Source: Escherichia phage UAE_MI-01. From it: a stretch of 44,281 nucleotides of DNA. The notes under the pieces were generated by a model. That model saw nothing but the letters and a program-made list of their open reading frames with translations. It was not told the DNA's origin and searched no databases. The position numbers and the translations under genes were made by a program. The stretch lies in sequence record MW862804. The stretch is one strand, 5' to 3'. This document shows positions 6,258 through 32,401 of the stretch, one piece after another (the first letter of the stretch is position 1; each line of letters begins with the position of its first letter).

Positions 6258-7042
6258 ATGAGACTGACGAAAGACATTAAAAATCAGATCCTGGCTAACA
6301 TCCTGCGCGACCACGAAATAGCGACCGAAGCCAAACAAATCATGATGGACTCGCGCGATCTGGCTTATGCCATTACGCTGGACTGTATGCCATTACGCTG
6401 GACTGTATGCCAGAAGGCATTCGCACGTTCGCAGCGCTCCGCGAGCATATCAAGGCAATTCGCGACGACCAGTCGCAGATGTACGGCGTCAGCGTATACA
6501 CCAACAAGGCGACGTATAGTTATAACTCCGACCGCCCGAAAGGTATCGGCAGCGTTTACAACGCCACTTTCGAAATCAACGCAGGCGGAAATGTTCGCAC
6601 CTTGTCATTGAGTGGAGACGGTCGCCAATACCGCGTGCATCGCGGGTACTGGGAAGAGAAATATATGAATAAGCTCGCGCCCGATCTCGGCGATATCGTT
6701 CCGGGGTTCGAGACAGTTATGCTGGCTTCAGTGTGCGAAGTGGACGAGGACGGGAAAGCGCTGCCGATATATCTCCCACGCGGTCGCGTAGACTACCCGG
6801 CGGACCATGACTTCTGTAAGCGCCTGGACCGCAACGACAAGGCCCGTAGCGAGTTGCGCGCGAAGTATGATGCGTTCAGACTCACCGTTACCGGTGTACT
6901 GGACCTGCACAATACTGACAAGAAGCTGATTAAAGCATGGCCTGAAGTTGAGCAATTCATCCCATACCCGGACAAGCCAAAATCCACGGCGGTGGCGCTG
7001 GATGTGAAAACACTCAACGAGATTTGCGGCATTCCGCGCTAA
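6258..7042 (+). pseudogene. Hypothetical moron gene split by a 20-bp tandem duplication (frames rejoin if one copy is removed)
   Basis: ORF 6258..6611 and ORF 6407..7042 are in different frames; the 20-mer TATGCCATTACGCTGGACTG occurs twice in tandem (6366..6405); deleting one copy restores one continuous ORF of about 255 codons. Confidence 0.6.
6366..6410 (+). repeat. Perfect 20-bp tandem duplication (2.25 copies) inside a coding region
   Basis: Direct reading. Confidence 0.9.
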
Positions 7043-26831: not shown

Positions 26832-28256
26832 ATGGCAAGATTCCGACGTCGCGAATATCAGAAATTGATAACCGCGTTCATCCTCAAGCATAAGCGCTGC
26901 AATATATGGGCGACAATGGGGTCGGGTAAAACCGGCGCGACTATGTGGGCGCTGAATAAAATGTTCCAGACTGGCATCCTGTCCAGCCAGGAGGACCGCG
27001 TACTGGTGCTGGCCCCGCTTCGCGTTGCGTCGGGCACATGGCCCCCGGAGCAAGAAAAATGGCGCTTCCCCGCCCTGCTGGTAGTAGACGGCACCGGACC
27101 AGAGAAGGACCGCATCGCTGCGCTTGAGAGCGACGCTAACGTGGTTTGTGTTAACTATGATGTGGTTGAGTGGCTGGTTGACTATTGCGGCGACGAGTGG
27201 CCCTTTACGGTCGTTGTTGCCGATGAATCCACTAAGCTGAAAGGCTACCGCAGCAAGCAGGGCAGCAAGCGCGCCCGCGCCCTGGCCGCGATCGCGCATA
27301 AGCACGTCAAGCGCTGGATTAACCTGACCGGCACACCCGCGCCAAATGGCTTGAAAGACTTATGGGGTCAGACGTGGTTTGTCGACGGCGGCGAACGCCT
27401 CGGCAGTAGCTATAAGGCATTCACAGACCGCTGGTTTATTAGCAAGCCGGTTAAGCCTGGCAGCTTCACTATGCAGCACGCTCCGCTAAAGAACTCCGAG
27501 AAAGAGATACAACAACGTCTGTCAGATGTATCCCTCACCGTTGACGCGGCTGAATACTTCGGGTGCGACAAGCCAATCTATACGCCGGTTGTTGTGGACC
27601 TGCCGAAGAAAGCCCGCAAGATTTACGACCAGTTTGAAAGCGAGCTATTTGCCGAACTGGAAAGCGGGACAGTGGAAGCGGCGAACGCGGCATCGAAGAC
27701 AATTAAGTGCCTTCAGCTTGCTTCGGGGGCCGTGTATAAAGTCGACGAAGACGGCGAGCGCACCGATGAATGGGTGAAAATTCACGACGCAAAGCTGGAC
27801 GCGCTGGAAAGTATCGTGGAAGAGTTGAACGGTGCGCCGTTGCTCGTTGCGTATCAGTACAAGCATGACCTGGCACGTCTTAAGAAGAAATTTCCGCACG
27901 GCGTTGCGTTGGGTAAAGGAAAGCAGGGCAATAAGGATATGGAAGCATGGAACAGGGGCGAGATCCCCATCATGTTTGCACACCCGGCATCGGCGGGCCA
28001 CGGCCTTAACTTGCAGGACGGCGGTCATCACCTGGCAATCTTCTCCGACACCTGGAACTTTGAACACTTTTCGCAGATCGTCGAACGTATCGGGCCGGTT
28101 CGCCAGATGCAAGCCGGGCACCCTCGTCCGGTATTCGTCTACATTATCCAGGCGCGTGGCACACTTGACGAACTTGTCGCCGAGCGGCGCGACAGTAAGC
28201 GGGATATTCAGGACGACTTGATGGAATACATGAAAGCTAAAAAGGCGCGTAAATGA
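26832..28256 (+). CDS. SNF2/DEAD-box superfamily II helicase
   Basis: Walker A MGSGKTGAT, DEAD-like VVADESTKLK, C-terminal helicase domain; start chosen at MARFRR to avoid an 86-nt overlap. Confidence 0.8.
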   Translation: MARFRRREYQKLITAFILKHKRCNIWATMGSGKTGATMWALNKMFQTGILSSQEDRVLVLAPLRVASGTWPPEQEKWRFPALLVVDGTGPEKDRIAALESDANVVCVNYDVVEWLVDYCGDEWPFTVVVADESTKLKGYRSKQGSKRARALAAIAHKHVKRWINLTGTPAPNGLKDLWGQTWFVDGGERLGSSYKAFTDRWFISKPVKPGSFTMQHAPLKNSEKEIQQRLSDVSLTVDAAEYFGCDKPIYTPVVVDLPKKARKIYDQFESELFAELESGTVEAANAASKTIKCLQLASGAVYKVDEDGERTDEWVKIHDAKLDALESIVEELNGAPLLVAYQYKHDLARLKKKFPHGVALGKGKQGNKDMEAWNRGEIPIMFAHPASAGHGLNLQDGGHHLAIFSDTWNFEHFSQIVERIGPVRQMQAGHPRPVFVYIIQARGTLDELVAERRDSKRDIQDDLMEYMKAKKARK

Positions 28257-28948
28257 TTATCTGGTCATTGTTTGACGGCAGCGGCTTGATGATTGAGCGT
28301 GCTGCCGAGATGGGGCATAAGTGCTATTGCTTCAACTACTCCGAATCCGACCACGGGTCGTACCTGGACTACCGGATTTATGGTCGCGGGATCCGCTATC
28401 GCAATGCGTTTATTGATCTGGACTTTGTAGACCGCGCGATGAATGGCGATTTCGGTACGCCGGATATCATTTATGCGTTCCCACCGTGTACGGATCTGGC
28501 GGTGAGCGGTGCACCCGCTTTCCCGCGCAAGCGCGCCCGCGACCCCGCCTTTCAGCTTAAGGCGGTGCGCACCGCGAAGATCGCCGCTTACCTGGGTGAT
28601 TTCTTCGAAGTGCCATATATGATTGAGAATCCGCGCAGCGTGCTATCAACTCAATGGCGTAAGCCGGACCACTCGTTTGACCCGTGGGAGTATGGAGGAT
28701 ATCTTCCGGAGGATGACGTGCACCCGCTCTTCCCGGAATACATCAACGCCCGCGATTCATATCCGAAGCTGACCTGCTTATGGACTGGCAACGGCTTCCG
28801 TATGCCCGAGAAGAAACCTGTTTTCGTTGAAAAAGGGTACTCGAAGCAGTATAGTCGCCTCGGAGGCAAATCAGCCCGCACAAAATTAATCCGGTCGCTC
28901 ACCCCGCGCGGCTTCGCGATAGCGGTCAATGAGGAAAATTTAAAATGA
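28253..28948 (+). CDS. C5-cytosine methyltransferase-like protein with atypical motifs
   Basis: Motif I-like SLFDGSG, motif IV-like FPPCT (PCT instead of PCQ), motif VI-like IENP; only 231 aa; ATGA coupling. Confidence 0.45.
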   Translation: MIIWSLFDGSGLMIERAAEMGHKCYCFNYSESDHGSYLDYRIYGRGIRYRNAFIDLDFVDRAMNGDFGTPDIIYAFPPCTDLAVSGAPAFPRKRARDPAFQLKAVRTAKIAAYLGDFFEVPYMIENPRSVLSTQWRKPDHSFDPWEYGGYLPEDDVHPLFPEYINARDSYPKLTCLWTGNGFRMPEKKPVFVEKGYSKQYSRLGGKSARTKLIRSLTPRGFAIAVNEENLK

Positions 28949-29268
28949 ATACTACATTCGAGGCCATTGATTTTTCGGTTGCAATGACTAACCAGTTATT
29001 CTCCTACGACAGCAAGACCGGCGTCATTCGCCTGAAGTCCACCGGATGCAAGATCGGCAACCTTAACACTGCCGATGGCGGTACTCGTATCGAATGCAAC
29101 GGCAAGACGCTATCCGGCGCACGCGTGGCGTGGATTATTGAGACTGGCAATACAATCCCTCCAGGCTATGCCGTAGTGTGCCGTCAACGCACACCAGGCC
29201 ATTACGGCAACCGCATTAGTAACCTGTATCTGGTAGACGTTGCGCGCGACCCAAATTTTTATTCGTAA
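28945..29268 (+). CDS. Hypothetical protein
   Basis: ATGA coupling; 107 aa. Confidence 0.45.
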   Translation: MNTTFEAIDFSVAMTNQLFSYDSKTGVIRLKSTGCKIGNLNTADGGTRIECNGKTLSGARVAWIIETGNTIPPGYAVVCRQRTPGHYGNRISNLYLVDVARDPNFYS

Positions 29269-29349
29269 ATTGGTTGCATAACCGTATTGGTTGCATTATA
29301 TTGAGGGTGTCCGGTTTGGACGCCCTTTTTAATACCCGGAGACAGTGAT

Positions 29350-29592
29350 ATGAAATCATTATTTTTCGACTACGACGGCGACCTTCGATTTTGGGTGCTC
29401 CTCACCCTAATGATTGCCGTTTGTGTTTGCGTACCTGCCGCGGGTGTCTACTACTCGGAACGCTACGAATGCCGGACTGTGTACGCGGAGCAAACAGGTC
29501 GCAACACCCAATGGCGCTATGGTGTCTGCTGGGTAGAGATGGACGGCAAATATATTCCACGCGATGAAATCCGCACTACGGAGACTAAATAG
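29350..29592 (+). CDS. Small membrane protein
   Basis: GGAGA RBS; one hydrophobic segment; preceded by tandem TTGGTTGCA motifs. Confidence 0.45.
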   Translation: MKSLFFDYDGDLRFWVLLTLMIAVCVCVPAAGVYYSERYECRTVYAEQTGRNTQWRYGVCWVEMDGKYIPRDEIRTTETK

Positions 29593-30057
29593 ATGAAAAT
29601 TTTACAAGAAGAAAAAGCATACTGGGCCGCGCAATGCCTCGAAGCCCGTGAACAGGCCGAACGTGCGAACGCGTTGGCGGACACCAACCAGGCGCTATAT
29701 GAAGGAGAGAAGAAAGTGCGCCGGGAGTTAGAGGAGCGCTTCGAACTGCTATTCGAATTGATGGGGATTATGCAACGCACAGGATACACCACCAGCGTTG
29801 CGCTAAACCGCATTACTGCCGAAGGTCTGCGTGAACATTGCAAACGTGCGGAGGCGTATGTGCCTCCGAAGGGTCGCCAGTCTAAGATCGACAGGAAAGA
29901 CCTGGTGCTTATGGCGTGGCGCAACCCTACAAACGGCAGCTTTTACCCAGACGCGCGCCCGCTTAGTGCCGAGGAGACAAAGCGCGTGCAACGCATTCTC
30001 AAAACCGGCAATAAAATCGCCCTGTATGCGATAGACACCGACCATGCAGAAGAGTGA
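29593..30057 (+). CDS. Hypothetical protein
   Basis: 154 aa; start abuts upstream stop. Confidence 0.45.
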   Translation: MKILQEEKAYWAAQCLEAREQAERANALADTNQALYEGEKKVRRELEERFELLFELMGIMQRTGYTTSVALNRITAEGLREHCKRAEAYVPPKGRQSKIDRKDLVLMAWRNPTNGSFYPDARPLSAEETKRVQRILKTGNKIALYAIDTDHAEE

Positions 30058-30529
30058 GCAAAAAGATAGCTGGCGCACGCCGCCAGCTTTATTTAAACCG
30101 CTGCGCCGGAAATACCGATTCCGTTACGATATGGCGGCAAGCGACACCAACCATCTGCTACCACGTTACTTCACGGCGGAGCACAGCGCGCTTGATGCGG
30201 ACTGGGCAGAGTTGAAAGGGTGGAAGTGGTGCAACCCGCCGTATTCCGATCCGCTGCCGTGGGTTGAGTGCGCAGCGCACGGGCGCCGGACTGTCATGCT
30301 GCTAAATCAGGATACGTCAACGAAGTGGGCGAAGCTGGCCCGGAAGACCGCAAACCTGATAATTCTTCTGGACTGGCGTATCCGATTTATACACGCTGTG
30401 ACCGGTGAAGTCGGGCCGAGCAATAACAAGTGTCAGCAATTGATAATCTTTGACGAAGCGCCACCCATAGGCAGCGCACAAATTGAAATAATGAGCGAAG
30501 GAGAACTCCTTGAATATCTTAATAGTTGA
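30044..30529 (+). CDS. DNA N6-adenine methyltransferase (phage Dam family)
   Basis: WRTPP...F near N-terminus and NPPYS catalytic motif; about 160 aa as typical for this family. Confidence 0.7.
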   Translation: MQKSEQKDSWRTPPALFKPLRRKYRFRYDMAASDTNHLLPRYFTAEHSALDADWAELKGWKWCNPPYSDPLPWVECAAHGRRTVMLLNQDTSTKWAKLARKTANLIILLDWRIRFIHAVTGEVGPSNNKCQQLIIFDEAPPIGSAQIEIMSEGELLEYLNS

Positions 30530-30734
30530 CCGCGACCCCGCGGTCGTAGACCAAATGCAAAAAGACTATAACATTGACCCGCGCCGCGATCGTGTGCGTC
30601 GCGTGTCACGACCTGAGTACCTCCTGGGCATGGACCTTACTGGGTGGCTTGTCATTACCCGACGTTGCCATTTCGTGTGCAACTCTTTCACCGCGCGGAG
30701 CGCCCGATACACCCTTATTGAGGCATTGAAATGA
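30510..30734 (+). CDS. Hypothetical protein (TTG start)
   Basis: AAGGAG RBS 6-7 nt before TTG; stop overlaps next start (ATGA). Confidence 0.35.
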   Translation: MNILIVDRDPAVVDQMQKDYNIDPRRDRVRRVSRPEYLLGMDLTGWLVITRRCHFVCNSFTARSARYTLIEALK

Positions 30735-31201
30735 AACTACTGATTTGTGACCTGGATGGCGTTATTAACGGTTCAAGCGATGCGCGTGCCGACCTGGTGC
30801 CGGGGATAAAAACGAAATCCACCTTCTGGGCGAAGTGGCACAAAGCGCATATACGCGAAGATCTGAACATGGATATGCTGCCGCTGTTGCGCATGTATAA
30901 AGCGCAAGGCTTCGAGATCGCGTATCTGACAAACCGGCAGCGAGAATGTTGGGACACCACCGCCGAACAACTGGAAGTATTCCCGACAGGCCGGTTGTTT
31001 ATGCGCCACATGCTGGACGATACCCCGCCGCCAGAGTTTAAGGCGTGCGCCGTGTTCAAAATGGTCTGCTATGCGGACGTGTCGGAACTGGTCATCATTG
31101 AAGATTGCGAGAAGAACATCGCGGCAATTCGTCGGGCGTGCGGAGATTTGGTCCCGAAAATTTATGCGATAAACGTTGCAAAATTCACTTGCAACCAATA
31201 G
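30731..31201 (+). CDS. HAD-superfamily hydrolase (nucleotidase/phosphatase-like)
   Basis: N-terminal LICDLDGVI matches HAD motif I (DxDG). Confidence 0.55.
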   Translation: MKLLICDLDGVINGSSDARADLVPGIKTKSTFWAKWHKAHIREDLNMDMLPLLRMYKAQGFEIAYLTNRQRECWDTTAEQLEVFPTGRLFMRHMLDDTPPPEFKACAVFKMVCYADVSELVIIEDCEKNIAAIRRACGDLVPKIYAINVAKFTCNQ

Positions 31202-31264: not shown

Positions 31265-31756
31265 GTGAAAGCATACGAATACTGCAAAAACGCCGCCACC
31301 ACTATGGAACAGCGCGGGAAAGAAAACGGCTATGACAACGCTAAAGAAGAACGCAGCGCTAAACAGATCGCCGCCGTGTTTAACGCGCTTACCGGTCGCG
31401 ACCTTACCGAGCAAGAAGCCTGGACCTTCCTGATCTGCCTGAAGCTGGTGCGCCAGCACCGTAAGCACCAGGAAGATAACATCGTGGATCTGGTCGCGTA
31501 TGCGGCCCTGCTGGGCGAATCTTACATGACCGTGCATGACGAGATCCAGATCGATACAACGGCAGCACAATTCGACAGCCTCAAAGGCGGGCATTCATCT
31601 GAGGGCAAGACGGTTAAAGCCGCTAATTTTGGCATCGCAGATCAGGACGTCCAGCCTATGGTCGTGCTCACCGGCGAAGACGGATCTAAAATCTGCATGA
31701 CGCAGGAAGATTTCCGTAACATGGAAAAAACACTGGTGACTGGCGCACTTAAATAA
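31265..31756 (+). CDS. Hypothetical protein (GTG start)
   Basis: AAGGG RBS; preceded by palindrome CAACCAA-tagg-TTGGTTG. Confidence 0.4.
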   Translation: MKAYEYCKNAATTMEQRGKENGYDNAKEERSAKQIAAVFNALTGRDLTEQEAWTFLICLKLVRQHRKHQEDNIVDLVAYAALLGESYMTVHDEIQIDTTAAQFDSLKGGHSSEGKTVKAANFGIADQDVQPMVVLTGEDGSKICMTQEDFRNMEKTLVTGALK

Positions 31757-32374: not shown

Positions 32375-32378
32375 AAAA

Positions 32379-32395
32379 GGGGGCCGCACGGCCCC
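32379..32395. terminator. Bidirectional terminator between replication module and tail fibre gene
   Basis: GGGGGCC-gcac-GGCCCC flanked by A6 and T-rich tract. Confidence 0.65.
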
Positions 32396-32401
32396 TTCTC
32401 C

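Follow-up and report, generated by a model that had tools for sequence, protein, structure and literature searches.

Two Putative Orphan DNA Methyltransferases and an Unrelated HAD Phosphatase in the Early Region of Escherichia Phage UAE_MI-01

We analyzed three genes in a 44,281-nucleotide stretch of DNA from Escherichia phage UAE_MI-01 (MW862804), referred to here as the window. They encode a short protein resembling C5-cytosine methyltransferases (the C5 protein), a Dam-family methyltransferase, and a HAD-type phosphatase. The most probable interpretation is that they represent two independent orphan DNA methyltransferases, forming plain 5-methylcytosine (5mC) and N6-methyladenine, together with an unrelated phosphatase. 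UAE_MI-01 is a Dhillonvirus, and the window is its complete genome, which has already been published. The three proteins are identical to the UAE_MI-01 entries QVD49052.1, QVD49056.1, and QVD49058.1, named in GenBank 'putative DNA cytosine methyltransferase C5', 'putative methyltransferase' (Dam), and 'hypothetical protein' (HAD). The 2022 paper characterizing UAE_MI-01 does not mention the methylase genes. The deposited genes, the names of both methylases, and the characterization of one family member, from phage K42, are thus prior knowledge. A preliminary description, made from the letters of the window alone, had listed the three open reading frames (ORFs) with their motifs, and all of these are present at the coordinates in Table 1.

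The C5 Protein Belongs to a Compact Phage Dcm-Like Family

Motif I of the C5 protein (F7-D-G9-S10-G11) aligns with motif I of M.HaeIII. Motif II corresponds to N28, motif III to I54-D55, and motif IV to P77-P78-C79-T80, preceded by Phe (FPPC). P78-C79 aligns with P80-C81 of M.HhaI in a low-probability hhalign alignment. Motif VI corresponds to E125-N126-P127, in which the Val of ENV is replaced by Pro family-wide. FDGSG, N28, PPCT, and ENP are all invariant in 27 homologues. In a more distant set of 47 representatives, which share 32-55% identity with the query, the invariant positions are C79, E125, P127, P144, Y170, W177, and P185, and the motif II position is mostly occupied by Asp, the usual acidic residue. 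The preliminary description had singled out PCT and ENP. They do differ from the canonical PCQ and ENV, but they are the norm in their own family and no mark of degeneration or inactivity.

The protein was also correctly described as a divergent, short C5-methyltransferase homologue without an obvious target-recognition domain (TRD). Only ~35 residues separate the last core strand from the C-terminal element R214-S-L-T-P-R-G-F-A, which lies 17 residues from the protein end and forms part of a conserved RSLTPRGFAxAV helix. The position equivalent to motif VIII is K172-x-T174, ahead of the last core strand (174-179), and reads KKT in most members. Compared with the canonical C5-methyltransferases of PF00145 (E. 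coli Dcm, M.HhaI, and M.HaeIII), the C5 protein is about 100-240 residues shorter and has no separate TRD or small domain.

The C5 protein matches PHROG 757, labeled 'DNA methyltransferase', at 2e-82. A word-indexed search retrieved 2,878 relatives. An exhaustive hidden Markov model search with the family returned 1,975 representatives of clusters formed at 50% identity. E values below 1e-10 were obtained for 851, and the length is nearly always 210-260 residues. The family is present in 1,509 phage records, corresponding to ~1,500 of 50,697 phage genomes. PF00145 was matched by just four of the 47 representatives, with a best E value of 0.0039, and searches of the PDB with the C5 sequence gave nothing significant, the best hit being an in-register alignment to motifs I-IV of M.HaeIII (E 0.3-0.5). 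Within Dhillonvirus, the ratio of nonsynonymous to synonymous substitution rates (dN/dS) of the C5 gene is 0.02-0.06, a low level that the helicase and polymerase genes share. Because the protein lacks both a TRD and motif X and scores below the PF00145 threshold, we assign it to the compact phage Dcm-like family rather than to canonical Dcm.

Predicted Structure of the C5 Protein

The AlphaFold2 model of the C5 protein (predicted local distance difference test, pLDDT, 89.7; predicted template modeling score 0.88) displays the class I S-adenosylmethionine (SAM) methyltransferase fold of the C5-methyltransferase type. A Foldseek search with the model ranked the catalytic domains of DNMT3A and DNMT3B first (E about 3e-7), although their sequence identity to the C5 protein is only about 15%, and the DNMT3 enzymes are CpG-specific oligomers with regulatory domains. 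CmoX (PDB 8YF3) is also a close structural neighbor.

The secondary structure and the low-probability hhalign alignment to M.HhaI concur in placing motif I at strand 1 (FDGSG), motif IV at strand 4 (PPC), and motif VI at strand 5 (ENP). The 'DHSF' segment of the C5 protein is the counterpart of the M.HhaI strand 'DYSFH'. It is followed by a conserved insertion, residues 144-172, in place of the canonical QxRxR, and then by one further core strand (174-179) and ~50 residues. In profile-profile comparisons with the single sequences of E. coli Dcm or M.HhaI, motifs IV-VI were in register at negligible probability, without a placement of motifs VIII and X.

A Characterized Relative Indicates 5-Methylcytosine Formation

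Experimental evidence on the family comes from a preprint on retron Ec86, in which every escape mutant of K42 (a Hanrivervirus similar to KarlJaspers/Bas06) had a disruption in a 711-bp 'dcm' gene. When expressed, K42 dcm raised the 5mC content of the multicopy single-stranded DNA (msDNA) of the retron, as measured by liquid chromatography coupled to mass spectrometry (LC-MS), whereas its C82A/E128A/K175A/K176A variant had no such effect. This quadruple mutant had lost the ability to methylate and to trigger the retron. The authors had selected the four residues from a superposition of DNMT3A and an AlphaFold model, with K175 and K176 treated as substrate-binding.

In KarlJaspers (MZ501090), the 711-bp gene bas06_0055 encodes a protein 53% identical to the C5 protein over the full length (236 versus 231 residues; E 2e-86). 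C82, E128, and K175 of K42 align with C79, E125, and K172 of the C5 protein, so that the catalytic Cys, the catalytic Glu, and the first Lys are shared. In both phages, which are small siphophages, the gene is early and stands alone; KarlJaspers belongs to the Drexlerviridae, and its dcm gene has another genomic context, with no adjoining Dam or HAD gene. Pantoea phage AAS23 carries a further homologue, gp52, which is 52% identical to the C5 protein (E 2e-79). Its authors reported an HHpred match of gp52 to a Dcm structure at 99.7% probability and restriction digests in which the phage DNA showed resistance of the Dam and Dcm type, indicating both kinds of methylation.

We predict with high confidence that the 231-residue protein is an active DNA 5mC methyltransferase. 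By analogy with K42, whose Bas06 counterpart is 53% identical, and with the 52%-identical homologue, its target is probably CCWGG. The genome shows no avoidance of CCWGG or GATC (observed/expected ratios of 0.98 and 0.85, respectively), which is compatible with protective methylation. Both of the 168-kb T4-like carriers of the C5 gene that we examined belong to Krischvirus. Cytosine in Krischvirus DNA is unmodified, so the substrate of the enzyme would be available there.

Dam and HAD Proteins Typical of Their Respective Families

The Dam-family assignment of the preliminary description holds. The protein matches PF05869 with 123.8 bits (cut-off 28.1) and carries the catalytic motif N64-P-P-Y67. 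It resembles other PF05869 phage Dams, such as 933W L0094 and the T1-like Dam, in its strong Pfam match, the NPPY motif, and its small size, but differs from them in scoring below the cut-off of the NCBIfam equivalog TIGR01712 (85.8 bits versus 97.05). Its identity is 36.7% to 933W L0094 and 30% to the KarlJaspers Dam, and a PDB sequence search found nothing. Homologues occur in 1,753 phage records, and the dN/dS ratio is 0.05-0.13. By analogy, the enzyme probably makes N6-methyladenine at GATC, a specificity that we take over from its characterized relatives.

The third gene was likewise rightly described as encoding a HAD-type phosphatase, since the four HAD motifs are conserved in 12 homologues: D7, D9, K104, and D125 never vary, and the T/S at 67-68 is retained. 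A conserved W33-x-x-W36-H-K-x-H40 segment forms a small cap. PHROG 415, which the protein matches, is labeled 'polynucleotide kinase', and PF03767 remained below the cut-off. The word-indexed search gave just 16 relatives, and the resulting HAD profile is therefore shallow. In Foldseek searches, the model (pLDDT 84.4) was most similar to Pnkp1 (4xru, 4.6e-5) and the phosphatase of T4 Pnkp (5uj0, 8.2e-5), while lipin/Pah, the N-terminal domain of soluble epoxide hydrolase, and acid phosphatases scored within one log of these hits. The HAD domains of T4 Pnkp and Capnocytophaga Pnkp1 share the DxDxT/V catalytic motif and a minimal cap with the window protein, which differs in having neither a kinase domain nor a ligase partner and is only about 16-19% identical. 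From the model, an intact phosphatase most similar to the Pnkp 3'-phosphatase domain is credible, and its substrates are, at low confidence, probably nucleic-acid 3'-phosphates or nucleotides. None of the evidence that we found ties the HAD protein to base modification.

Gene Linkage Does Not Support a Common Modification Pathway

The preliminary description had proposed that the three genes form a DNA or nucleotide modification pathway that might include hypermodification. We searched 80 viral contigs encoding the C5 family with every gene of the region. The order helicase-C5-HNH-(p80)-p154-Dam-p74-HAD-DUF6378, in which p80, p154, and p74 denote small proteins of the corresponding lengths, was confined to Dhillonvirus-like contigs. 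Even there, individual genes are lost. One Dhillonvirus-like contig (L015) keeps the C5 and Dam genes and has neither p74 nor the HAD gene. In Opt212 (locus L089, 3507-3707), the C5 gene is reduced to an in-frame remnant of 66 residues, with the helicase, HNH, Dam, and HAD genes intact. Since this natural Dhillonvirus has only the remnant, the C5 methylase is dispensable. Outside the genus, the genes are scattered or absent. Contigs whose identity we inferred as Kagunavirus/Jerseyvirus-like have the order VRR-NUC-C5-helicase, with no Dam or HAD gene within 10 kb. In Drexlerviridae, the Dam gene lies 7-10 kb from the C5 gene on the opposite strand, and a Pnkp-like gene is located elsewhere. Krischvirus and large myoviruses carry a solitary C5 gene. 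The HAD type is also ~8-fold rarer than the C5 family (188 versus 1,509 phage records).

The annotation of EK99P-1, whose genome is 91% identical, lists no gene for CmoA, a ligase, TET/JBP, a glycosyltransferase, or a hydroxymethylase, and neither CmoA nor a ligase was found among 10 extra window ORFs that we scanned. The BASEL study found Dhillonviruses to be restriction-sensitive in comparison with the 7-deazaguanine-modified Queuovirinae. Because the synteny is limited to Dhillonvirus, the genes are lost independently and differ in abundance, no partner genes (an amide ligase included) are annotated in EK99P-1, the K42 homologue yields plain 5mC, and the phages are reported as restriction-sensitive, the pathway reading is unsupported. 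The unrelated small genes interspersed among the three, an HNH endonuclease gene among them, also argue against it. That the C5-like enzyme, Dam, and the HAD protein act jointly in a multi-step hypermodification, for example one that needs a phosphatase step, is in our view highly improbable.

The genome does carry a gene of a family named for an association with nucleotide modification, here frameshifted. The ORF at 6407-7042 matches the Pfam family Nmad5 (PF18757, 'nucleotide modification associated domain 5') at 3.8e-42. The nmad5 gene (window 6258-7042, + strand) lies antisense within the structural module, 22 kb from the three genes discussed above, and is split into two ORFs by an exact 20-bp tandem duplication of TATGCCATTACGCTGGACTG (6366-6385 and 6386-6405). 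The 111 relatives in GenBank all lack this duplication, which could be either a genuine mutation that inactivates the gene or a fault in the assembly. The C-terminal part of Nmad5 is also similar to proteins from M6/YuA-like phages, whose thymidine is hypermodified. For Dhillonvirus nmad5, a Lys-to-Glu change has been reported to escape the Tmn defense, deletion of the gene was tolerated, and its cloning was toxic.

Alternative Interpretations

Several observations weigh against reading the locus as two plain DNA methyltransferases and an unrelated phosphatase. The C5 protein has no Pfam match at E ≤ 0.1, PF00145 included, and none in NCBIfam. The canonical motif VIII (QxRxR) and motif X (GNxV) are not recognizable, and K176 of K42, one of the mutated lysines and a Lys in the family consensus, is L173 in the window protein. 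Within the family, 5mC activity has been shown only for the K42 enzyme. In the K42 study, CCWGG was assumed by reference to E. coli Dcm, with mutagenesis of the msDNA stem as its sole support. The host Dcm of MG1655 methylated msDNA little and did not trigger the retron, and thus the phage enzyme may differ from it in site or substrate form. For AAS23, a contribution of the host to the methylation was not excluded. The substrate of the HAD protein is suggested by a weak fold similarity (E about 5e-5, TM-score about 0.6), with lipid and sugar phosphatases nearly equal. Nmad5, finally, leaves a small chance of an uncharacterized modification in the genus, but the gene has no connection to the three discussed here.

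Some of these points would fit a C5-fold enzyme with a different chemistry or target, namely a carboxy-SAM-dependent reaction as in CmoX, a non-CCWGG or relaxed site, or a preference for single-stranded or hairpin DNA. The missing TRD, motif X, and Pfam match, the structural proximity to CmoX, and the activation of Ec86 by the phage enzyme and not by host Dcm all favor such an enzyme. However, the K42 enzyme increased 5mC in the LC-MS measurements, and AAS23 DNA digests as Dcm-methylated DNA. CmoX, a C5-carboxymethyltransferase, is further characterized by SPPC and Arg350 and co-occurs with phage CmoA and the CmoY ligase, whereas the C5 protein has FPPC, and such partners are not among the annotated genes of EK99P-1. 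We therefore regard this possibility as unlikely. Also unlikely is a minimal C5 enzyme that reads DNA in an undescribed manner, with the 144-172 insertion or a DNMT3-like dimer substituting for the TRD, that acts on a site or substrate form (such as single-stranded or hairpin DNA) unlike that of host Dcm, or that cooperates with the genus-specific Nmad5 in an uncharacterized modification. A different site or substrate form, if true, would explain why Ec86 is triggered by the phage enzyme but not by host Dcm. The C5-like protein might instead be a dead pseudo-enzyme resembling DNMT3L, or a DNA-binding regulator or decoy, given its short length, its unusual PCT and ENP motifs, its absence from curated families, and the L173 substitution. 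We consider this very improbable in view of the catalytic Cys and Glu conserved throughout the 47 divergent representatives, the FDGSG motif that all 27 homologues retain, the very strong purifying selection on the gene, and the loss of methylation and retron triggering upon mutation of the K42 catalytic residues.

Two independent methyltransferases and a separate phosphatase thus remain the preferred reading, for which we propose the following mechanism. In the C5 enzyme, SAM would be held by FDGSG, N28, and D55. Cys79 in motif IV (PPC) would attack C6 of a flipped cytosine, Glu125 in motif VI (ENP) would protonate N3, and the methyl group would be moved to C5 to give 5-methylcytosine. DNA recognition could be provided by the conserved insertion 144-172 and the short segment 180-213 in place of a separate TRD. 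The PF05869 Dam would form N6-methyladenine, presumably at GATC. Both methylases might outpace or out-complete the host on replicating phage DNA and thereby shield it from methylation-sensitive restriction, at the cost that retrons such as Ec86/Eco1 can sense phage methylases. Independently of them, the Pnkp-type HAD protein may strip 3'-phosphates from nucleic-acid ends or nucleotides, a role that we propose with low confidence.

Genomic Context and Neighboring Genes

Over 140 Dhillonvirus genomes, among them UHP65, EK99P-1, SSL-2009a, and HK578-like phages, match the 3.4-kb region at 90-92% nucleotide identity. The three genes sit in the + strand early/replication block, at about 19.7-32.4 kb. 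Its other products include a PD-(D/E)XK/DUF2800 nuclease, an Enc34-type single-stranded DNA-binding protein, a VRR-NUC nuclease, an SNF2 helicase, and a family A DNA polymerase, the last named after the annotation of relatives. Stop and start codons overlap (ATGA) between the helicase and C5 genes and between the C5 and HNH genes, and stop/start overlaps also occur at p154/Dam, Dam/p74, and p74/HAD.

Table 1. Features of the UAE_MI-01 early region around the methyltransferase genes (window coordinates)
Feature	Coordinates	Strand	Remarks
Zinc-ribbon protein (CxxC...CxxC), 57 aa	26392-26565	+	PHROG 5558 6.5e-17
SNF2-family DNA helicase	26832-28256	+	PF00176 6e-11; start 26832 inferred from UHP65 annotation
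C5 methyltransferase (predicted)	28253-28948	+	231 aa; PHROG 757; motifs and model
Small HNH endonuclease	28945-29268	+	PHROG 99 1.2e-16; weak PF13392
80-aa protein (p80), hydrophobic segment	29350-29592	+	PHROG 18961
154-aa protein (p154)	29593-30057	+	PHROG 10530
Phage Dam-family N6-adenine methyltransferase, 161 aa	30044-30529	+	PF05869 7.3e-36
74-aa protein (p74), translational overlap with Dam and HAD	30510-30734	+	PHROG 10685
Stand-alone HAD (DxDxV) phosphatase	30731-31201	+	PHROG 415 3.4e-36; motifs; model
DUF6378 protein	31265-31756	+	64 bp after HAD, 0.7 kb downstream of Dam
Terminator-like hairpin, bidirectional	32378-32397		Closes the + strand replication/early block

Dhillonvirus is the only group in which the HNH gene, probably a homing-type insert, adjoins the C5 gene, and p80 is variably present among relatives. 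PHROG 10530 and RefSeq label p154 as 'DNA ligase'. The protein is far too small for a ligase and has no Pfam, NCBIfam, or PDB match; the label is unsupported and probably a propagated misannotation. The 57-residue zinc-ribbon protein belongs to a PHROG labeled 'Lar-like restriction alleviation protein', and endonuclease VII/HNH zinc-finger families match it as well. Its sequence makes an additional anti-restriction factor in the same block possible.

A PDB sequence search with the DUF6378 protein found nothing, and PHROGs 474 and 1167, which are related to it, are oddly labeled 'phosphofructokinase'. The neighborhood with methylases is recurrent: in an unrelated group of viral contigs of 14-71 kb (L063, L074, L076, and L078-L082), the genes for Dam, DUF6378, and a short C5 methylase follow one another in this order within 1.5 kb. 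As to base composition, CTAG is strongly depleted in the whole window (11 observed versus 51.5 expected; ratio 0.21), and GGCC moderately so (0.68). Rare 6-bp palindromes are CAGCTG (1), GGTACC (1), and CCCGGG (2).

Implications

The C5 protein represents a very large family of compact phage enzymes that is invisible to Pfam and NCBIfam, and its members appear in automated annotations sometimes as 'hypothetical protein' and sometimes as 'methylase'. What remains of interest at this locus is the specificity of a TRD-less enzyme, its mode of DNA recognition, and its predicted role as a trigger of retron Ec86. Since that retron is triggered by the K42 homologue, the Dhillonvirus UAE_MI-01 is predicted to be sensed by Ec86/Eco1, which bears on the choice of phages for therapy.

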